Assembly: GCA_963730935.1 (NCBI GenBank)
Contig: CAVSTP010000003.1
Coordinates: 224,001 to 288,000, forward strand
Origin: an uncultured Nitrospiraceae bacterium
GTDB taxonomy: Bacteria > Nitrospirota > Nitrospiria > Nitrospirales > Nitrospiraceae
DNA length: 64,000 nt
Reading direction: 5' to 3'
Both the position numbers and the translations under genes were made by a program. Each line of letters begins with the position of its first letter. The first letter of the stretch is position 1. Shown one piece after another: positions 3,523 to 42,658 of this stretch. The notes under the pieces were generated by a model that searched no databases, had not been told where the DNA came from, and saw only the letters and a program-made list of their open reading frames with translations.

Positions 3523-4584
<1,062 letters not shown>

Positions 4585-15105: not shown

Positions 15106-16833
15106 CTATTGATAGTCCTCGTTCAACGCTCTCAGAAACGCCACCAGTGCCGTGGCGTCTCCTGCCGTCAACGCGATGCCCTGCAGCTCTGGAGCTCCAT
15201 TTCTCAGGGTCCCCGCTCGTGCGAGCGTCGAAGTATCGCGATAGAACGTGATGATGTCGTTCAGCGTGTTGAACTGGCCGTTATGCATATACGGTGCGGA
15301 ATGACTCAAGTCGCGAAGTCCAGGCGTTTTGAAACGAGCGATGGCACGAAGCAAGAGCACATCATCGGCCGGGCAGGGCATTTGGCCATCGCACAGTATC
15401 GCCCGAATCTTCGTCTGAGGGGCCGGCATGTCATCGTTGCGAAAGACATTCCACACTCCCAAATCCGTCAGCGTGGTACTGGCCGATGGAATCGATCGGA
15501 AGCGTTCGCTCGCCGTGGGATGCTGTTCGGTGGCCGGAAGGTCGTTGGCTGTTCTGGCGGCAAGGATAGGAATCGGTAGAGTGAAAAAATCGCCTGTAGC
15601 ATGCAAGCTGTCGTATTCTCTCTGGGTCGTGCCGGTATTGTGCAGCTTGAAATCGGTAAAGTTGGGCGCCATATGGCAGGCAATGCAATTCCCGACCTTC
15701 CCCGCCGTCAGTTCTGCCGGTGAAGCGACCGGGGCCGCCGGTTCCGCAAGGAACATCTTCAAGCCCTCCAGTTCAGTCGCACCGAATTCGAATGGTTGAG
15801 AATGAAATTGGAATTGGCCATCGGGTCTGTTGGGGTTGGACGTCACGAATTGAGGAGCGAAACCAGGTGCATTCACGAGCGTTCGTAGGCGTCGGCTGTA
15901 GTCGATCGGAGACTCGTTGGGATCCGGTTGTTGAGGAAGCCCGTTTATTTCGAGGAACACGTCGAACGGCGAGCGAATCGGAGCGCCGCTGTCCTCGGTC
16001 TGCGAAAACAGCAGGCCATTCACGTATGCGGCCACGACTTTCACCACGGCATCGAAGATTTCTTGATCCGTGGCCGATGCGATGAACGCGCGGAATTCGG
16101 GTGATAGACGAGACTCATCTGGGATCGCCGGATTGCTACCGGTAAACAGGATACGGTAGGAGAGCCCGCCGAACTGATCGGACGGGTCGAACGATCCGTC
16201 ATCGCCTCGAACCACACTCGCGATGTGCGCAATGGCCTGTGCTCGCTCGCCCGGCAGCCAGCCGAAGTTTCGGCCGGTGAAGGTTCCGGCGACCAGATCT
16301 TCCATGGAGTTGAATTCTGCGTCGAAATGGAAAAGGACACCGCCCGGCCGATCGAGCGCCGAATTGACCAGCGGAGGCGAATTACGGGGCGTATGGGTCT
16401 TGCCGTCGGCGCGAGCGGGGATCGGACTCCGTGATGCAAAATCAGTATAGGTACGCATGCTGCCTCCGGGAGCCGTCAGGAGGTCGTCGACAAAGTGACA
16501 GGACCGGCAGTTCATCGACATCCCTTTGAAGGGCGCTTCGGCGGTAATTGGGGCTCCCAAGGTTTCCACTGAATCCACGACAGGGTCACCTGCATTCGGA
16601 TCGTTGACGTCTCCTCCGCTGTCCAAAAACGCCTTGAACGCCTGGGCAAATCGGGTTTCCATGAACAAGCGCTCGCCGACGGCCTGTTCCGCTCCAGGGG
16701 TCCCTGTGGTCCTGGCGGTGGCAGGAGCACCAGAATTTCCGCTGCCTGAACAGCCTGTCGCGACCATGGTGGTAATAAGTAGGAGTCTTAAAGTAGACAG
16801 AAAAAATCCGCAAGGCGTTGGGAACATGATCAC
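15106..16833 (-). CDS. Diheme cytochrome c peroxidase/MauG superfamily lipoprotein
   Basis: Lipobox-like VATGC, GERLF.E.RF, CRSCH, RNSPPL, CIACH, FKTPGLRDL..SAPYMHNG. Confidence 0.85.
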   Translation of the reverse strand: MIMFPTPCGFFLSTLRLLLITTMVATGCSGSGNSGAPATARTTGTPGAEQAVGERLFMETRFAQAFKAFLDSGGDVNDPNAGDPVVDSVETLGAPITAEAPFKGMSMNCRSCHFVDDLLTAPGGSMRTYTDFASRSPIPARADGKTHTPRNSPPLVNSALDRPGGVLFHFDAEFNSMEDLVAGTFTGRNFGWLPGERAQAIAHIASVVRGDDGSFDPSDQFGGLSYRILFTGSNPAIPDESRLSPEFRAFIASATDQEIFDAVVKVVAAYVNGLLFSQTEDSGAPIRSPFDVFLEINGLPQQPDPNESPIDYSRRLRTLVNAPGFAPQFVTSNPNRPDGQFQFHSQPFEFGATELEGLKMFLAEPAAPVASPAELTAGKVGNCIACHMAPNFTDFKLHNTGTTQREYDSLHATGDFFTLPIPILAARTANDLPATEQHPTASERFRSIPSASTTLTDLGVWNVFRNDDMPAPQTKIRAILCDGQMPCPADDVLLLRAIARFKTPGLRDLSHSAPYMHNGQFNTLNDIITFYRDTSTLARAGTLRNGAPELQGIALTAGDATALVAFLRALNEDYQ

Positions 16834-16842
16834 TCCTCCTGA

Positions 16843-17517
16843 TCAGTTTAAAATAAGGTTCGGTCGTTGCAGGCAGTGCCCACACATCTCGACAAGCTGA
16901 GGATCGAATTGTGTACCCGATGCGACGGTGAGAATACGGTAGGCCGCTATGTTACGTGCGTCCTGATCGATCGCTCCGGGGATCTGGATGGCGTCGAAGG
17001 CGTCCGCAATTGCGAGGACACGAGCCTCGATTGGAATGAAGGTTCCTCGTATCCCATAGGGATATCCTGATCCATCCCATCGTTCGTGGTGGTGTGCGAT
17101 GATCACCGACGCATTTCCGAGAAACCGGTATGGTTCAAGCCATTGAGCACCGGTTCGTGGATGGCATTGGACGGCAGTATACGATTCACCATCGAGATAG
17201 CCGGCATGCGCATGCAGCCTGCTGGGCAATGCTAACAGACCAATGTCGTGGAGCAGTGCCGCGAGCGTCAAATGGTGCCATGCATCTCGACAGAGACCTG
17301 CGGCTGATCCGATGGCCTGTGCCAGGGCGGCGGTTCTCCGCGCATGTCCTTGCTGCCATGGCAGGGCCTGATCCATTATCTTCGCCACTTGCCGGACGAG
17401 AACGGCTTCGATATGGGGCCGGGCTGAACTGGGTAGCCGAAGGACATCAATCGTTCGAAGTGCCAATCGGATGCGTTCCAGTGCTGAATCAGTGCTGATC
17501 ATTGGAATCGACTGCAT
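16843..17517 (-). CDS. HD-GYP domain protein (cyclic dinucleotide phosphodiesterase-like)
   Basis: LLHDIG, HP, HHERWDGSGYPYG, AIADAFDA, GTQFDP. Confidence 0.88.
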   Translation of the reverse strand: MQSIPMISTDSALERIRLALRTIDVLRLPSSARPHIEAVLVRQVAKIMDQALPWQQGHARRTAALAQAIGSAAGLCRDAWHHLTLAALLHDIGLLALPSRLHAHAGYLDGESYTAVQCHPRTGAQWLEPYRFLGNASVIIAHHHERWDGSGYPYGIRGTFIPIEARVLAIADAFDAIQIPGAIDQDARNIAAYRILTVASGTQFDPQLVEMCGHCLQRPNLILN

Positions 17518-17530
17518 GACGTGCGCTCGC

Positions 17531-17568
17531 AAACAAAAAGCCCAAGATCCTGTCTCGATCTTGGGCTC
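17531..17568 (-). terminator. Intra-operon intrinsic terminator/attenuator upstream of the HD-GYP gene
   Basis: Minus strand AGCCCAAGATC-GAGACAG-GATCTTGGGCT (11-bp stem) followed by TTTTGTTT. Confidence 0.8.
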
Positions 17569-17604
17569 TGGGTGAACAACCGCTGGCCTCTACAGATATT
17601 TACG
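17563..17604 (-). repeat. Copy B of a conserved intergenic motif (AAATATC..GAGGC.CAGC...CCAGAGNCC)
   Basis: CGTAAATATCTGTAGAGGCCAGCGGTTGTTCACCCAGAGCCC; aligns with copy A at 20914-20964. Confidence 0.7.
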
Positions 17605-17620
17605 GACTGAAGTTCGAATG

Positions 17621-18139
17621 CTAGCTCTCTTCTCCTCGCTTCCCTGCCATCAACGGTTGCCCCAAGATCCACATCTCATACAATGGCACAGCCATCATGA
17701 CGAAGAAGCTGAGCATCATGAGGGTGTCTCCCGTGAGCATGGTCAACACAAAGACGGGGGAGACATAGCTGATCAGCCACGGCGAGATGAGATCGAGAAT
17801 AACGCCGCCGAATCCTGACCAGGTCAGGGCAGCCTTCAAGGCATGGCTGGCATTGGTGAGGAACATGACGTGCACCAAAATTATAAACACGACCGGCATC
17901 GTGAAAAGGTGAAAGTGCGTGACCTCGGCCAATTCGCGGAACGACATCGGTTCGCCGAACGTCGCGTCTGACCCTCGATAGTGATCGGCAATGCCTGATG
18001 GCGATAATCCGGTCATACTGTGGGCCCAAAAAAAGGAAAACAAGAAGCCGGCCAACATCAACAGTAAGAACAACGTGTACAACAGCCGAATATGACGATC
18101 GGAGTCACGGAGCCTGAATCGCTGATTGAAGTTGCGCAT
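17621..18139 (-). CDS. Hypothetical 4-TM membrane protein with intramembrane histidines
   Basis: Four hydrophobic segments; THFHLFTM...LVH. Confidence 0.75.
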   Translation of the reverse strand: MRNFNQRFRLRDSDRHIRLLYTLFLLLMLAGFLFSFFWAHSMTGLSPSGIADHYRGSDATFGEPMSFRELAEVTHFHLFTMPVVFIILVHVMFLTNASHALKAALTWSGFGGVILDLISPWLISYVSPVFVLTMLTGDTLMMLSFFVMMAVPLYEMWILGQPLMAGKRGEES

Positions 18140-18161
18140 GCGGGACGCGTGGTCCGCTTTC

Positions 18162-18851
18162 TCAATTACCGAACACCGAGCCCCAAAAACCCTTTTCGGC
18201 TTTTCGCGCGGCGATGGTGTCGCTGCCTAATCCGACAGGTTTTAAATAAAATTCATCAACAAGGACCAGGACGCGCTTAACTCCAGCGCTGAAAGAGCGC
18301 ACAGACATGGTGGCTCCGCTGATGTTGATGATGTCTTTATTGATGCGGATCGGATCGTGAACTGTCTTGCCTTCGTACTGGACATTGAATCGTTTGGTGC
18401 GTACCTCGCTGCCTTTGGCCTCTCGGAAGACGAGCAGTTCGACATCGGTGCAAGCGCCCGTTGGGTCGACTCCGACCATATAGGTCATGGGCTTATGCTT
18501 GCCGATCGTGTTCTGAATTAACGCATATCCGTCAACTCTGGTGCCGGTTTCGCCAACGAAGACTTCAAAAGATTCCTCAGGAAATTTCCACCCGATTCGC
18601 TCTTCGATCTGAGCTTTCTTTTCCGGTGTAAGCCGGATGACATCCTGCCGAATGCGTTCGGAATTCGGCAACATGATTTTGAGTGCCTCCTCCTCCGTCA
18701 GAAAAACCTCCGCATGAGTCATTTCTTGTTCGGTCAGGAAGCGTTTGAGTTCGGCATCCCAAATGCGCTCGCTCCAGGCCGGCGTTGCAAATGCGATAAA
18801 CAGGCATAGGCTGCTAAGAAATGAGGCCAGAGGTTTCATGATGTTGCACAT
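18162..18851 (-). CDS. Exported FMN-binding domain protein (probable ApbE flavinylation substrate); start may be 18839
   Basis: Signal peptide; DIINISGATMS matches the [S/T]GA[S/T] flavinylation motif. Confidence 0.85.
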   Translation of the reverse strand: MCNIMKPLASFLSSLCLFIAFATPAWSERIWDAELKRFLTEQEMTHAEVFLTEEEALKIMLPNSERIRQDVIRLTPEKKAQIEERIGWKFPEESFEVFVGETGTRVDGYALIQNTIGKHKPMTYMVGVDPTGACTDVELLVFREAKGSEVRTKRFNVQYEGKTVHDPIRINKDIINISGATMSVRSFSAGVKRVLVLVDEFYLKPVGLGSDTIAARKAEKGFWGSVFGN

Positions 18852-19297
18852 CCTTTTTCGTGTAACTTAGAGTTCAATTGGTTGGAAACATCGTTCAGCA
18901 CCTCTTCCGAGGGGTCGATTGGCCACCACCGGGTAGCTGCCTGCGTAACCCCGCCCTTTGCATGCCACCGCTGGCGGGTTTCCAAAATGCTGACCGCTGC
19001 TACGTCATCCATGCGTTTGACCGCCGCGCTGAGCCGGGCGCGTTCGCGGTTGCCGAATCCTTCCCTTCCGAAGGCCCCGTAGGTTCGTTCCTTACCTTCC
19101 ATTTCAATCCAGGCGGTTTCTATGACGCCCTTTTCTTTGTTTTGGCTTGTGATGGAATGGCCTTTGAGCGTATCGATGGCCGCATCCCATACGGTGTCGT
19201 ATGCGCAGGTGTAATAATGATCATGACTGCCGCTTACCGCGGCGCATCCAGCGGCGAGCACCAGGAAGGAAAGACAAACGATGTTGTTCACGCTCAT
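18836..19297 (-). CDS. Hypothetical lipoprotein
   Basis: Lipobox LAAGC; overlaps the next gene of the operon. Confidence 0.75.
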   Translation of the reverse strand: MSVNNIVCLSFLVLAAGCAAVSGSHDHYYTCAYDTVWDAAIDTLKGHSITSQNKEKGVIETAWIEMEGKERTYGAFGREGFGNRERARLSAAVKRMDDVAAVSILETRQRWHAKGGVTQAATRWWPIDPSEEVLNDVSNQLNSKLHEKGCATS

Positions 19298-19319
19298 GTT
19301 GTACCTGAATGTGGATCAT

Positions 19320-19353
19320 GTGGGGCTCTTTCATTCGCACGAAAAAGCCCCAC
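19320..19353 (-). other. 15-bp RNA hairpin with GNRA tetraloop directly after the porin-like gene
   Basis: Minus strand GTGGGGCTTTTTCGT-GCGA-ATGAAAGAGCCCCAC including two G-U pairs; no U-tract after it. Confidence 0.7.
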
Positions 19354-19362
19354 GATAACGAC

Positions 19363-20865
19363 CTAGAAATACGTCGCTGCTGAAATGACAAATGCGTTGT
19401 CGTGAATACGCTGACCGGAGTTTGGATTAAAAGACATCGGCAGATATTGGTAACTCATCTTGAATACGCAATCTTCGATGGGCCGGTAGTTCAAGCCGAA
19501 CGAGATTTGCTCCAGGTTGCCCTCGTTTTCCCCTTTGTTATCCATGTTGAGGTTAACTCGGTCGTACCGAATGACGGCCGTGAAGGTTGACCCCTCGCCG
19601 AATCGTTTCGGTGACCAGTTGGCCAGGAACGCAGGCATGAAATGATAGTTTGCTTGGATGTAGTACCCTTGCATTCGCTGTGGTGGAGCGGCAAACGAGT
19701 TCAGCGTGTTGACCCCCGTGAGTAAGGAACCAGGACTGAAACCGAAGGTACTCCCAGGGATCGCCCGGGAGTTACCGCGAGCATAGGACCAGGCTGCTTC
19801 ACCGATGAGTTCAAACGGACCTTTTTGAAGTGTCCAGTCGATTGCTGTGATACTTAAGGGGTTATAGCTGGATGGAGAGGCATTGCCAAAATATCCCGAT
19901 CCGGCAACCTCCACGCCAAGCATCGGGCTGAAGGCCAGACGACCTGAGACAGCCTTTCCGTTATTAATGTCAAGCCCGTCAGCGGTCTGTTCACATTTCC
20001 GTTGGCGAGTATTCTTTGTCCCGTTTTCCTCGTTAGCACGTGGGGACCCGTCACTGTTATACCCACAAGGGCCTGTTGTGAAGTACAACTCATAGTCCAG
20101 CTTACTGGTCCTTCCCGGGTAGAATGTCCCGTAAAAGCCTGCGCCGGTTTCTGACATGGTTGATGGGACGACGAACTGGGCGACAAGTGGCCGATCGGTT
20201 AAGTCGTTCAAGGGCGAGTCGTGCAGCAGGTTGAACTTGCCGATTGGAATGAGCAAAATTCCTGCCCGAATATTGAAGGGTTCATTCACCAGGTAGTCGA
20301 TATGAGCGAACTCCAGACTAATTTCGATTTCACCGGCCCCTCTAATCCCATGTTCGATCTCAAGTTCTGATGCGAACTTCACATGCTCGGTGATGTCGGC
20401 GTAAATGAATGGCACGAAACGCTGCTGGTCGAATCCGTTGGTCGTACCCTGGTCACCCCGTATAGCGTTATAGTCTCCCGTTTCGAGGACACCCTTTTGG
20501 TGACTCCGATATTGAATGTCCATGTAACCGCCGACAATGGCTTTGGGCGCAGCCACGAACGGTTTGGCGTAGACCAAGCGGCCTGATCCGGTCGATCCAA
20601 AGCCTAATGGAACTTTTTCCTCCCCCTTCCGCTCGACTCTGACCTCGCTCATCGGACCTGTGGGTACCGGGTACTGAGGAGCAGCTTCCTTCTGTTCCAT
20701 ACTTCGCTCGGCTGCGCCTTCGCGTCGTTCGTGCTCCTGCATCTTCCTGTTGACTGCCTCATCAACCATCTTTTGAATTTCCTCGGGGGTCATGTCGGCG
20801 GCCAGGGCCGGCATCACCGGCAAGCTTGCGATCACGAGAGTCCCGAGGATTGACCTGATCCTCAT
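19363..20865 (-). CDS. Outer-membrane beta-barrel/porin-like protein with N-terminal helical extension
   Basis: Signal peptide, amphipathic strands, ELEIEH / LEFAHIDY acidic-His motifs, C-terminal ...AATYF; GGAGGT RBS. Confidence 0.75.
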   Translation of the reverse strand: MRIRSILGTLVIASLPVMPALAADMTPEEIQKMVDEAVNRKMQEHERREGAAERSMEQKEAAPQYPVPTGPMSEVRVERKGEEKVPLGFGSTGSGRLVYAKPFVAAPKAIVGGYMDIQYRSHQKGVLETGDYNAIRGDQGTTNGFDQQRFVPFIYADITEHVKFASELEIEHGIRGAGEIEISLEFAHIDYLVNEPFNIRAGILLIPIGKFNLLHDSPLNDLTDRPLVAQFVVPSTMSETGAGFYGTFYPGRTSKLDYELYFTTGPCGYNSDGSPRANEENGTKNTRQRKCEQTADGLDINNGKAVSGRLAFSPMLGVEVAGSGYFGNASPSSYNPLSITAIDWTLQKGPFELIGEAAWSYARGNSRAIPGSTFGFSPGSLLTGVNTLNSFAAPPQRMQGYYIQANYHFMPAFLANWSPKRFGEGSTFTAVIRYDRVNLNMDNKGENEGNLEQISFGLNYRPIEDCVFKMSYQYLPMSFNPNSGQRIHDNAFVISAATYF

Positions 20866-20897
20866 TCCAAACCTCCATAAGGTAAGTGGTAGTGGTC

Positions 20898-20964
20898 AGA
20901 CTCGGGACTCGACGGTCTCTGGTCATCTTGATTTCAATACGGCTGTGCCTCGACGATATTTCCG
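20898..20964 (-). repeat. Copy A of the conserved intergenic motif, with three tandem GAGNC[CT] hexamers
   Basis: CGGAAATATCGTCGAGGCACAGCCGT...CCAGAGACCGTCGAGTCCCGAGTCT on the minus strand. Confidence 0.7.
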
Positions 20965-20977
20965 AAAGCCTCCTTTC

Positions 20978-21163
20978 TCATAGCCGACTTGATGATGGGG
21001 CGTTCCTCCATCCCTGGATCGAGGAGAAGGGAATGACCACGATGCGTTTACATCGTTTGCATTTCAGCTCCAAGCTTTGGCCTCTGACTTTTGCGATTAA
21101 TTGGCCGCATTCGCAGCGGGTTTCAGATGTTTCGGCGATCGCGTGTGAAGGACCAGTGATCAT
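20978..21163 (-). CDS. Small 4-Cys zinc-ribbon protein resembling phage Mu Com (61 aa)
   Basis: RCECGQLIAK...LELKCKRCK; AGGAAG RBS 7 nt before the ATG at 21163; first gene after a strong promoter. Confidence 0.75.
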   Translation of the reverse strand: MITGPSHAIAETSETRCECGQLIAKVRGQSLELKCKRCKRIVVIPFSSIQGWRNAPSSSRL

Positions 21164-21176
21164 AAGGCGACTTCCT

Positions 21177-21195
21177 GATATTGAGAACAATTATT
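21177..21195. promoter_or_regulatory. Fur box
   Basis: GATATTGAGAACAATTATT, 14/19 to GATAATGATAATCATTATC; lies between the -10 element and the RBS. Confidence 0.7.
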
Positions 21196-21208
21196 AAAAT
21201 CGCTGGCG

Positions 21209-21237
21209 AGTATAGCGACGTCCTCCTACACTGTCAA
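21209..21237 (-). promoter_or_regulatory. Sigma70-type promoter of the Com-like/porin operon
   Basis: TTGACA-17 nt-TATACT on the minus strand. Confidence 0.8.
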
Positions 21238-21298
21238 GAGGTGTCCCTCGAGGGATCGTGCTCCCCTTGGATCGAGGCGATGCCGTATAATCACGGTA

Positions 21299-21910
21299 AT
21301 GGTGCCTATGTCATCCGTATGGCGGTCCTGTGCGGTAGGACTCATCTTCCTGCAGGGCTGCCTAAGTGAACTCCCTGCCGTGCCTGAGGAGGGGATCGTC
21401 CAGTCGAATGTTGCTGTCGGGCGGGTCGTTGCTGTGCTCACCGGCGAGCGGAGGCGGATCTACGAGCCAGCTGTCAGATCGTTCGAGGTCCAGAATAGGC
21501 AGACCAAGGAACGTTTTACGGTCGAGATAGAGTCGGACGACGAACGATTCATTCTGCCACTTGCCCCAGGTGAGTATGAATTGATCCGCGTTCAAATCAA
21601 TGAAGGCCCTTTCTTGTCGATCGCCCAACTGGCGTCGACGTTTTCGATTGGCCGAGATCCGGTCACCTATCTGGGAACCTGGAGGTTCGGAGTTGATTCT
21701 CCGAAATATGGCCGGATGGTATCTGTGTCCATGGTCAGTGACGAAGCAGACCGCGCTCACGCAATCGAAACACTCACACACGAAGAGCCGTCGTGGGAGG
21801 CTGGCACTGTTCCCACTGTGCTGCCTGATCCGACAGAAGTGCAGGCGCGTCTGTACGAAGTCATGCCTTATCCCCGAGTGCCCCGCTATTTCCGTCGCCA
21901 CTGGTGGTGA
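21299..21910 (+). CDS. Hypothetical lipoprotein
   Basis: Lipobox LQGC; overlaps the apbE start; TATAAT 7 nt upstream of the ATG. Confidence 0.7.
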   Translation: MVPMSSVWRSCAVGLIFLQGCLSELPAVPEEGIVQSNVAVGRVVAVLTGERRRIYEPAVRSFEVQNRQTKERFTVEIESDDERFILPLAPGEYELIRVQINEGPFLSIAQLASTFSIGRDPVTYLGTWRFGVDSPKYGRMVSVSMVSDEADRAHAIETLTHEEPSWEAGTVPTVLPDPTEVQARLYEVMPYPRVPRYFRRHWW

Positions 21911-22965
21911 AGCCCTACTACATGAGCCTCAAGCGCACCATGGCCGTTGTCTGTCTGGGTGTTGCAATTCTGTCTTGTGCTAAAGGCGGGTCTCCTGAAC
22001 TTCTCTTGGTGACGGTGAAACGGACACAGATGCATATGGGCACGCTGGTGTCCATCACCGCGGTTGGACGGACACAAGAGGAGGCCACTGCCGCCATTAC
22101 CGCCGGGTTTCAGGAAGTGAAGCGCCTCGAACAATTGCTGAGTACATGGATTCCCGATAGCGAGCTCTCACAGGTCAATGCTGCTGCAGGGCGAAGCCCC
22201 GTACGGGTCAGCTTGGAAACCATGGTGCTTGTGAGAAAATCGCTCCAGGTTGCCGAAATGACCGAAGGGGCGTTCAACATCGCCATTGGCCCGGCCGTCG
22301 ATGCGTGGAATATCTCGGCCGAACCTCGGCTTCCGACTGCTGAAGAATTGGCCGCTCTCAAGCCGTTGATAGATTTACAGCATGTGCATACGGACGTCTG
22401 GGAGCGGACGATTTACCTGGAAAAGCCCGGTATGCGCGTCGACGTGGGAGGTATCGGTAAAGGCTATGCTGCCGATCAGGCCGTTCTGGTGATGAAAAAG
22501 GCAGGAGCGGTCGCCGGCGTCGTGGCATTGTCTGGCGATATCAAGGGCTTCGGACGTTTGCCGGATGGTGGAGCTTTTCGGGTCGGAATCCAGCACCCTA
22601 GGAAGGAGGGCGAAATCATAGCGGAGATCAATCTGCAAGACGAGGCCATTTCAACTGCCGGCGATTACGAGCGGTTCTTCGAAAAGGATGGTATCCGATA
22701 TCATCACATCCTGGATCCCAACACGCTGCAACCGGCTAGGGGCTGTCAAAGTGTGAGCGTGATTGCCAAGGAAGGAATTTGGGCCGACGGCCTTGATACC
22801 GGCATTTTCGTGCTGGGCGCTGAGCGAGGCATGGAACTGGTCGAGCAGTTGGAAGACGTCGAAGCGATCATCGTCGACCGAGATGGCCACGTGCTGATCT
22901 CATCCGGACTGCGAAACCGAGTGCGATTATCGCTCCGACTCGACGAGTTGAAACTCAATCACTAA
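21904..22965 (+). CDS. apbE: FAD:protein FMN transferase ApbE
   Basis: MGT, DSELSQVN, TEGAFNI, DVGGIGKGYAAD, STAGDYER, HHILDP, ADGLDT. Confidence 0.93.
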   Translation: MVKPYYMSLKRTMAVVCLGVAILSCAKGGSPELLLVTVKRTQMHMGTLVSITAVGRTQEEATAAITAGFQEVKRLEQLLSTWIPDSELSQVNAAAGRSPVRVSLETMVLVRKSLQVAEMTEGAFNIAIGPAVDAWNISAEPRLPTAEELAALKPLIDLQHVHTDVWERTIYLEKPGMRVDVGGIGKGYAADQAVLVMKKAGAVAGVVALSGDIKGFGRLPDGGAFRVGIQHPRKEGEIIAEINLQDEAISTAGDYERFFEKDGIRYHHILDPNTLQPARGCQSVSVIAKEGIWADGLDTGIFVLGAERGMELVEQLEDVEAIIVDRDGHVLISSGLRNRVRLSLRLDELKLNH

Positions 22966-41857: not shown

Positions 41858-42658
41858 TCATTCGTTCTTGAGCTTTTTCTTGATCAAGTCTGCTCCATAC
41901 CGACCTGACAACAGCATGGACCCGAAGGCCGGCCCCATACGCGGCGTCCCATACACAGCGGCAACGGCCAAGCCGATCACGAAACAATTGGGATACACCT
42001 CGCCGGTATGATCCATGACATCTTGTTCAGAGCGGGAGACCCACATGGCGCCGTTGCCCGGCACTTCGGTGTACAGGTTCCGCCGGTGGAGCAGGTTCAC
42101 GACGACCGCGTCGTGCCCTGTCGCATCGACCACGATCTTGCTCTCGAGCGCAATCGGATCCACGTGAATGATATCGTGGCCGGCCATCTCGGCGGTTGTA
42201 TTGTTGACGACAACGCCTTCGAGGACTCCTTCACGGCGGACGATCAGATCGACAACCCGCGTCAAATTGAGCACTCTCGCACCGGCCGAGTAGGCGGCGG
42301 CGATGAGCGCGCCGGTGGCATGGGGCGGATCGACGATATACATGCCCTCGCAGTCTTTGACTTTCTTGCAAGGCACGCCGATTTCTTCGAGAATTTTATG
42401 GGCCGGGGCGCAAATGGTGGCCTTATTCATGAGATAGCCGCCATGCCAGAAGCCGCCGCCGAGGGCGAGGCTTTGCTCAACGATCACGGTGCGGAAGCCC
42501 ATGTCGGCCAAGTCCCGGGCGCAAATGAGGCCTGAGGGACCGGCGCCCACGATGATTACGTCGCTTTCGATCAGCTGATCGAATTCCTTATAGTATTCGC
42601 GCGCAATCTGCCTGGTGATATCGCGCTCGCGCAAGGGGGCAGGTTTTGGTTTTCCCAT
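41858..42658 (-). CDS. thi4: Thi4-type thiazole synthase, sulfide-dependent (non-Cys) form
   Basis: GAGPSGL, LGGG.W.GG, HVDP, DATGHD, PRMGP.FG.MLLSG; downstream of thiC. Confidence 0.92.
   Translation of the reverse strand: MGKPKPAPLRERDITRQIAREYYKEFDQLIESDVIIVGAGPSGLICARDLADMGFRTVIVEQSLALGGGFWHGGYLMNKATICAPAHKILEEIGVPCKKVKDCEGMYIVDPPHATGALIAAAYSAGARVLNLTRVVDLIVRREGVLEGVVVNNTTAEMAGHDIIHVDPIALESKIVVDATGHDAVVVNLLHRRNLYTEVPGNGAMWVSRSEQDVMDHTGEVYPNCFVIGLAVAAVYGTPRMGPAFGSMLLSGRYGADLIKKKLKNE

Follow-up and report, generated by a model that had tools for sequence, protein, structure and literature searches.

The proteins of Bgl/Sac-type ribonucleic antiterminator (RAT) systems, such as LicT and SacY, stabilise a weak hairpin that overlaps an intrinsic terminator. 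A different RNA-binding regulator, Com, is an activator in phage Mu; according to the excerpts available of the report on this protein (PMC6483171), Com selects for GAG(N)2CC, in most cases in bipartite form, and recognises CC(N)2-3GAG within a six-residue loop at the apex of a short hairpin in which the first C is paired, the closing pair is C-G and the loop GA is protected when Com is bound. In the same excerpts the Com site adjoins the mom translation inhibition structure, and the Mu record AF083977 contains the Mu site that they quote. Here, we analysed a window of 64,000 nucleotides (nt) from an uncultured Nitrospiraceae bacterium (assembly GCA_963730935.1, contig CAVSTP010000003.1, positions 224,001 to 288,000) and describe an operon that starts with a gene for a 61-amino acid (aa) Com-like protein with four Cys residues and contains two hairpins, hairpin A ahead of a porin gene and hairpin B ahead of a terminator (Table 1). 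We consider hairpins A and B very probably to be functional RNA elements. Moreover, the match to the Com motif and the linkage between gene and hairpins lead us to lean towards the reading that this cellular Com-type protein binds the two weak hairpins and stabilises them against stronger alternative folds.

Genomes were compared in a family sample of 151 genomes from 39 genera and a phylum sample of 201 genomes; orthologous comparisons used 29 small-gene loci and 16 operons complete to the far end, and searches of the window's own genome (4.05 Mb) covered all contigs. The small gene was detected in 127 of the 151 family genomes and in 35 of the 39 genera, often with two to three paralogs (this count and those of the strict hairpin patterns in the 151 genomes include the unpublished genomes G006 and G076). 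In the phylum sample, the gene was present in 45 of the 201 genomes, with 27 of 28 in the home family, 12 of 12 in the sister family and two of two in a third family. Within a 36-codon core of the 29 orthologs, 508 codon differences were synonymous only and 74 changed the amino acid. An initial annotation of this stretch had made its proposal dependent on conservation of the open reading frame (ORF), and both counts bear this conservation out. We conclude that the 61-aa ORF is a real gene under purifying selection.

The four Cys residues of the protein, at positions 17, 19, 35 and 38, are invariant in 25 family sequences; the first pair has the spacing CxC (RCECG) in all 25 members and the second pair CxxC. 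A search found 614 homologs, and among the homologs listed 18 of 120 carry the Joint Genome Institute (JGI) name 'phage FluMu protein Com'; the names borne by homologs place the organism among Nitrospira. Alignment of the family profile with Mu Com (AF083977) by hhalign gave a probability of 86% and an E value of 4.9e-6 over 30 columns in the zinc-finger part (Com residues 4-35); the CxC spacing of the first pair makes a gap of one residue necessary. Moreover, PHROG family phrog_13819 ('gpCom control of modification') matched all 25 members (E 0.0022 for the window protein) and phrog_6417 ('translational regulator') matched 24 of the 25 (E 6.8e-5 for the window protein). By these profile comparisons the small protein is a remote relative of Com, in agreement with the description 'Com-like' that it had initially been given. 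Pfam and NCBIfam scans of the small protein returned nothing usable, a search of PDB sequences with the family profile found no relevant structure, and a protein search of the own genome found no paralog.

Hairpin A is encoded by a 26-nt box, GACCAGAGACC-NNN-GAGUCCCGAGUC, that is nearly invariant in 30 loci and that RNAalifold folds as a hairpin. In a MAFFT alignment of 31 distinct sequences, 99.1% of the cells are paired; two pairs show A-U to G-C double changes (in five and four sequences, respectively) together with G-U intermediates, and the covariation score was reached by none of 500 shuffles, a control that kinship of the sequences can inflate. In distant genera, as judged by eye, the outer stem GAC/GUC changes to GGU/GCC or AGC/GCU and the inner stem reads GGAC/GUCC. 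At the apex, a stem of three base pairs (bp) with a closing C-G pair carries the six-residue loop C-NNN-GA, such that the apex reads CC(N)3GAG, with N4 in some relatives. The covariance model matched hairpin A in the window with 45.9 bits. A second covariance-model match at 42240-42266 (14.8 bits) lies inside a coding region and an A-box pattern match at C4:379750 (two mismatches) has no related gene in its context; both were rejected as chance matches.

Hairpin A is also an imperfect inverted repeat between two genes, and zinc ribbons can bind DNA. On this basis, a transcription factor, which might be the small protein, could use the conserved boxes as DNA operators; this explanation is very unlikely. 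The variation in hairpin A keeps pairing by way of G-U pairs (A-U to G-U in eight sequences and C-G to U-G in five), which is sensible in the transcribed strand only and therefore fits RNA, not DNA. Moreover, the porin coding region contains the complement of the box, which holds synonymous sites fixed there, and hairpin B overlaps the stem of a terminator.

This complement of the box, CUCGGGACUC, is predicted to form a 10-bp helix with GAGUCCCGAG of hairpin A. The helix is paired in 96% of the cells of 29 distinct sequences, and at least seven of its ten pairs occur in the minimum free energy (MFE) fold of 25 of 30 sequences. Third positions of porin codons 6-8 are invariant in 27 sequences, and those of codons 10-15 carry 1.2-1.9 bits, in a count that leaves out three loci of a divergent subgroup. 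Formation of hairpin A excludes that of this helix and vice versa, and the helix encloses the Shine-Dalgarno (SD) sequence and the AUG of the porin gene. Because the helix encloses the ribosome-binding site, binding at A would switch the fold of the initiation region.

A translational activator had initially been proposed to act at A. In the models, the porin SD is mostly paired in both states; its mean unpaired probability is 0.34 in the free RNA vs 0.18 with hairpin A forced and is lower in 26 of 30 sequences. Since SD accessibility falls slightly when hairpin A is forced, the modelling does not support an activator; our confidence in either direction of an effect of hairpin A on porin translation is low. 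An additional SD-like AAGGAGG is located 0-13 nt past the small-gene stop, with no start codon at SD distance as judged by eye; in the window, this sequence, GAAAGGAGGC, might hold terminating ribosomes or serve as a decoy for the anti-SD in porin codons 6-7.

Hairpin B has the same basal design as hairpin A, i.e. an outer stem (GGC/GCC), a CA/GA internal loop and a short variable inner stem. The arrangement GGCCAGAGG-loop-CC(C)AGAGCC followed by a terminator is found past the membrane-protein gene in the window and in 16 of 16 complete orthologous operons, and the 5' strand of the window hairpin reads CCAGCGG, a variant common to other genomes. The outer GGC/GCC stem is present in the MFE fold of 27 of 29 aligned sites, and the inner stem occurs as GGU/ACC, GGC/GCC, GGAC/GUCC, GGAA/UUCC or GGGU/ACCC. 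The match to the Com motif at B is partial and consists of CC-CA-GAG on the 3' strand.

On their own, B hairpins are weak (-4.0 to -8.3 kcal/mol; z between -1.7 and +1.0, no better than shuffles); the terminators that overlap B have -24 to -35 kcal/mol. The terminator follows and overlaps a B-type hairpin at most of the 29 sites; the overlap between the 5' arm of the terminator and the 3' strand of the hairpin amounts to 5 nt (17568-17564) in the window and to as many as 8 nt in relatives. In the folding models, hairpin B and the terminator exclude each other, and the terminator is predicted to win unless the hairpin is stabilised. The initial annotation had suggested an antiterminator at B; the hairpin is predicted to overlap the terminator in the way that an antiterminator would.

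The element that had originally been highlighted at both sites was a 27-nt motif together with CCAGAGNCC. Copy A begins 13 nt past the small-gene stop and copy B 16 nt past the stop of the last gene, with CCAGAGACC at 20922-20914 and CCAGAGCCC at 17571-17563. The copies are identical in 22 of 27 columns with two gaps, and their local score of 25 was reached by a fraction of 0.001 of 2000 mononucleotide shuffles, as calculated for this one pair with no correction for multiple comparisons. By blastn-short, neither 26-mer recurs in the 4.05-Mb genome, in which the best other matches were exact runs of 12-14 nt at chance level. The stretch at site A that matches the 27-mer is variable in 29 of 29 orthologous loci, including the closest relatives (L012, L017, L024), and belongs to a leader of 70-138 nt; thus, the 27-mer is not the conserved element. 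Moreover, the copies are not positionally equivalent because the copy in B includes the 5' strand of hairpin B; the copy in A sits ~15 nt upstream of hairpin A. By contrast, CCAGAGNCC is conserved at both sites, in the 5' strand of hairpin A and in the 3' strand of hairpin B. Of the shared motif, the identity within this genome and the conservation of CCAGAGNCC hold and the conservation of the 27-mer at A does not; repeated GAG/CC-type elements are conserved at both sites and fit the published Com recognition motif.

Based on the 22 identities, the low shuffle fraction for this pair and the activator function of Com in phage Mu (PMC6483171, excerpts), the functional site could still be taken to be the 27-mer plus CCAGAGNCC, with the protein as an activator at A and its Cys4 site as a metal sensor. 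We regard this as highly improbable, given the variability of the 27-mer at A in every locus, its lack of a further genome copy, the positional non-equivalence of its copies and the modelled SD, which does not open when hairpin A is stabilised. Considered alone, the 27-mer similarity could be due to chance in view of the many possible comparisons. To extend this explanation to all features, as chance similarities without function, is hardly tenable because gene and hairpins alike are conserved, in 35 of 39 family genera and also in further families.

The strict A pattern was found in 78 of the 151 family genomes, with two matches in the backward control, and the strict B pattern in 73 of the 151, with nine matches in the backward control. 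A genome scan for co-occurrence of both intergenic regions with the small gene had been suggested from the outset; the strict A pattern had no match in the 24 genomes in which the small gene was not detected. Two genomes (G130 and G049) have a B site without a detected small gene; their contigs break inside the operon upstream of the lipoprotein gene and so these genomes are not counterexamples. A-type boxes are also found upstream of second porin genes, each of which has its own box.

Gene and hairpin also occur together outside this operon. Members of a second protein subfamily, which are 48-60% identical and read RCLCGQLVAR...KCKRCRRLVTIPFSRI, are followed within ~20-40 nt by a B-type hairpin and terminator and then by an HD gene (L054, L060, L061, L075, L077, L078, L109), and in G114 the module of second-subfamily gene and B hairpin stands alone. 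Three further families (L096, L097, L098) have the small gene ahead of both a B-type hairpin and a porin-like gene. The sister family has two minimal hairpins between the small gene and the porin SD, close to the latter; they have the form GAG-G-stem-C-N2-4-GA-stem'-CC, their stems covary, and they read GAG-GA-CC-N3-4-GAG-UC-CC. In total, both hairpins and their competing structures are conserved, and Com-like genes and hairpins travel together in several module types.

Several loci show further features of this kind. In six sister-family loci (L091-L094, L103, L104), the sequence UCGUC-CGAUGC-GACGA is conserved right after the porin SD, 12 nt past the second Com-type hairpin, and, as judged by eye, could form a hairpin with the AUG in its loop, a layout very like that of Mu mom. 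L054 (G118:C5:128500-142000) contains three Com-like paralogs within 10 kb, which precede the porin operon, genes for TonB and a TonB-dependent receptor, and a duplicated HD gene, respectively, with B-type hairpin-terminators at the junctions at 4358, 5425 and 10562. In L048 of the same genus (G077:C1:3420000-3430200), the best match to the small gene lacks the porin operon behind it and has a B-type hairpin-terminator ~680 nt downstream.

The window's own genome contains a second strict B-type hairpin with an overlapping terminator at C5:1587-1562 (reverse strand), in a leader (region ~1720-1230). It is located ~65 nt downstream of a TTGACA promoter-like site with a palindromic ATTGAGA...TATCAAT box and is followed by a different 57-aa 4-Cys ORF (CxxC...CxxC) and a 180-aa ORF. 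This hairpin may be a target of the Com-like protein in trans. The A-type covariance model R1 detected B-type sites weakly and missed the window's own B site. In a phylum-wide search, a relaxed B pattern was as frequent outside the home family as in the backward control, and the three matches inspected (G169, G188, G302) lie inside coding regions.

We also considered that the hairpins are real cis-regulatory RNA that acts without the small protein, i.e. by self-switching, by translation of the upstream ORF, or through another factor, a small RNA or an RNase, and that the zinc-ribbon protein has an unrelated role, e.g. as a partner of the porin system or in metal handling. We judge this explanation to be rather unlikely; the conserved alternative folds at A and B could, in line with it, switch without a dedicated protein. 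A number of observations weigh against binding of both hairpins by the small protein. Pfam does not place the protein in the Com family: Zn_ribbon_Com (PF10122) had no match to the window protein and matched four of 25 members at E values of at least 0.02, with Mu Com as control scoring 36.8 bits vs the curated cut-off of 22.9. The first knuckle has CxC in place of the CxxC spacing of Mu Com. A search of a viral fold library gave no match at E <=0.001 and no Com-named entry in the top 50, and the AlphaFold model, although compatible with a zinc ribbon, is of moderate quality (mean predicted local distance difference test (pLDDT) score 70.6, ~86 over residues 21-50; three strands). The cost of a forced hairpin A is ~11 kcal/mol in silico, and the SD is not opened by it. 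Most B apical loops lack GA, so only the basal CCAGAG or CC(C)AGAG resembles the Com motif. Moreover, the window genome has one Com-like gene for two hairpin types, whereas other genomes have a dedicated paralog beside B, and no clear hairpin was found near the distant paralogs L099, L101, L105, L107 and L110. Finally, box and gene are physically adjacent; their co-occurrence is therefore not independent evidence, and adjacency alone explains it. Similarly, related genomes are not independent samples.

Contigs from soil and rhizosphere RNA libraries cover the locus. They record presence only, have no transcript ends and may include DNA, and neither their depths nor the gaps between them can be interpreted; they are weak hints. 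One contig of 1640 nt (19620-21258) spans the small ORF, hairpin A and the 5' part of the porin gene, and in each of two studies a contig crosses the terminator and reaches the HD gene (17420-17581, free of differences, and 17080-17591); these contigs are weakly in favour of the reading with the small protein as binder. Contigs over the small ORF from three different studies stop at 20891-20902, all within 12 nt of where hairpin A has its 3' foot, and a fourth contig runs through. These ends could represent a 3' end or a processing site, which would be weakly compatible with hairpins that act without the protein, or assemblies broken by strain variation.

Three lines of evidence argue against hairpins that act without the protein. 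The apical loop of hairpin A matches, in form and sequence, the experimentally defined Com site as given in the excerpts of PMC6483171. Independent modules and other families within the phylum have Com-like paralogs directly ahead of B-type hairpins. Moreover, at -4 to -8 kcal/mol vs -24 to -35 kcal/mol for the terminators, the hairpins are too weak unaided. Altogether, we favour that the small protein is the factor that binds and stabilises hairpins A and B.

The operon has a predicted promoter and a Fur-like AT-rich box ahead of the small gene; TTGACA-17-TATACT, the box and the 61-aa 4-Cys ORF all lie where the initial annotation had placed them. TTGACA is kept in 30 of 30 aligned upstream regions, and the -10 element of most relatives instead overlaps the AT-rich box. 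The box overlaps the -10/+1 region, and a variant form of it is found in the sister family. It agrees at 13 of 19 positions with the Escherichia coli Fur-box consensus, and the majority form of the family agrees at 15 of 19. A search of the own genome with up to three mismatches found no second copy of the box, and the titles and abstract openings covered by our literature search contained no expression data under iron limitation.

Together, these features suggest the following mechanism. A chromosomal member of the Com family would be made from the first gene of an iron-uptake operon, behind a promoter with a Fur-like box, and this small protein would bind and stabilise hairpins A and B, each against a stronger competing structure. 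Bound hairpin B would block the terminator and allow read-through into the HD gene or, in some relatives, into a second porin gene. Bound hairpin A would displace the codon 7-10 helix and switch the fold of the porin translation-initiation region. Antitermination, like any effect on translation, is what we infer from these folds. More broadly, and tentatively, the Com-type zinc ribbons of the Nitrospirota may form a family of RNA-binding regulators beneath Fur, in which one type would read GRCCAGAG...CNGAGYC hairpins, with or without a CC-NNN-GAG loop, as a porin-leader switch and as a junction antiterminator. In addition, unlinked sites, for example the B-type hairpin-terminator in the C5 leader, could be targets of the Com-like protein in trans, and its Cys4 site might make the switch metal-dependent.

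The porin gene is next after the small gene in 29 of 29 orthologous loci, and the porins are 48-89% identical. The HD gene lies downstream of the operon in 13 of 16 complete loci. For the 172-aa membrane protein, the final gene ahead of the terminator, no Pfam or NCBIfam family was matched. Further neighbours encode a ferritin-like protein, TonB_C, ExbD, ExbB and an ABC/TOBE ATPase; based on these genes and ApbE, the neighbourhood is concerned with iron uptake. The absence of phage genes nearby had been pointed out before, and we likewise found a cellular setting, a conserved iron-uptake operon with the same order in 29 of 29 loci and no phage- or mom-type context around the small gene, although no scan aimed at phage genes was made.

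In four of the 16 complete operons (L042, L043, L050, L055; in G088, G149, G061, G146), a second porin gene is located between the terminator and the HD gene. These second porins are 69-74% identical to the window porin and have their own A-type box upstream, with GCG replacing GAG in some; the window porin is closer to this second type than to the first-position porin of the same four genomes. In two loci from complete genomes (L051 and L052; G001 and G040), the divergent 203-aa gene was matched in three successive frames, which suggests that it is frameshifted or decayed. Finally, a 575-aa ORF at 15106-16833 (reverse strand) adjoins the ferritin-like gene; no Pfam family matched it at E <=1e-5, and two CxxCH haem-binding motifs were seen by eye.

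Table 1. Features of the operon and its surroundings, in window coordinates
Feature	Position	Strand	Basis and details
Divergent genes for a 203-aa protein and an ApbE flavin-transferase	21299..22965	+	Pfam ApbE, 280 bits; divergent neighbours conserved
Predicted promoter, TTGACA (21237-21232), 17-nt spacer, TATACT (21214-21209)	21209..21237	-	Read from sequence
Fur-like AT-rich box GATTTTAATAATTGTTCTCAATATC	21177..21201	-	Core TTAATAATnGTTCTCAAT in 30/30 loci
Gene for 61-aa Com-like 4-Cys zinc-ribbon protein, first of operon	20978..21163	-	ORF list
SD-like GAAAGGAGGC, right after small-gene stop	20968..20977	-	AAGGAGG in most of 29 loci and in sister family
Copy A of the initial annotation, 26-27-mer in variable part of leader	20939..20964	-	Aligned to copy B
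Hairpin A (H1)	20899..20924	-	GAC-CA-G-A-GAC[C-GUC-GA]GUC-C-C-GA-GUC
Porin SD GGAGG	20872..20876	-	Conserved; GGA paired with UCC (codons 6-7) in the RNAalifold fold
CUCGGGACUC in porin codons 7-10	20838..20847	-	Exact complement of GAGUCCCGAG (20910-20901), 3' half of hairpin A
Gene for 500-aa outer-membrane porin, Porin_O_P-like	19363..20865	-	Pfam PF07396, 23 bits vs cut-off 20.9; ATG at 20865
Gene for 153-aa putative lipoprotein	18836..19297	-	Pfam matches weak, sub-threshold; position conserved
Gene for 229-aa FMN_bind (RnfG-like) protein	18162..18851	-	Pfam PF04205, 33 bits; NCBIfam RnfG matches weak
Gene for 172-aa membrane protein, final gene ahead of terminator	17621..18139	-	Relatives 75-97% identical
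Hairpin B	17564..17588	-	GGC-CA-G-C-GG[UUGUUCA]CC-C-A-GA-GCC
Intrinsic-terminator-like hairpin	17531..17568	-	12-bp stem, 7-nt loop, UUUUU; MFE region z = -2.4
Gene for HD-domain (HD_5) protein, past terminator	16843..17532	-	Pfam PF13487, 116 bits; ATG at 17517 is the likelier start

In the literature excerpts and abstract openings available, Com is known only as an activator of a single gene, of the phage Mu type; the relative described here is fixed in the chromosomes of nitrite-oxidising Nitrospira-type bacteria and their kin. If the small protein binds the hairpins, a phage translational control has been domesticated for cellular metal homeostasis, and the Com fold acquires antitermination as a further mode of action. 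On the broader, tentative reading of a regulator family, the Com fold would here have its first function outside phages and its first part in antitermination. Binding of the hairpins would also open a direct route to studying how outer-membrane permeability and iron uptake are adjusted, once Fur repression is lifted, in organisms with difficult genetics. Hairpins A and B are candidates for new cis-regulatory RNA families whether or not the small protein binds them. A search of Rfam 15 over 16500-22500 (E <=10) gave five chance-level matches only, to eukaryotic or viral models, and neither hairpin A nor hairpin B was among them. Similarly, among titles and abstract openings we found no account of a cellular Com homolog, of PF10122 or COG4416 in such a context, or of this Nitrospira operon.

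Comparison with the two described systems brings out both likenesses and differences. Like Mu Com, the small protein has ~60 aa and an N-terminal Cys4 zinc ribbon, and the two share the pattern RC..C..L.AK......(I/L)E(I/L)(K/R)C.RCKR; unlike Mu Com, its first Cys pair is CxC and its score is below the Pfam Com cut-off. As in Com-mom, the regulator gene lies directly upstream of its putative target in one operon. To judge from the excerpts of PMC6483171, hairpin A resembles the Com site in its six-residue loop, CC(N)3GAG, and may resemble it in its position beside, or in overlap with, a predicted structure around the start region, and the sister-family hairpins resemble a Com target in their bipartite arrangement; the second site differs in that it overlaps a terminator, a role of Com that these excerpts do not mention. 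The conserved basal part of hairpin A, with its CA/GA internal loop, is additional to what the mom site has, and the competitor of hairpin A is a long-range helix that involves codons 7-10, where mom has a local hairpin. Unlike Com-mom, the system is cellular and belongs to a conserved iron-uptake operon of Nitrospira-type genomes rather than to a phage, and, unlike Com, it has several paralogs per genome in some relatives.

Compared with LicT and SacY, the candidate binder is a Cys4 zinc ribbon and not a CAT/PRD protein, with no sequence relation between them, and B-type sites are found at operon ends or between modules, besides leaders. The layout at B is nevertheless that of RAT antiterminators: the 3' part of hairpin B is the 5' arm of the terminator, and the hairpin is predicted to win only if it is stabilised by a protein.

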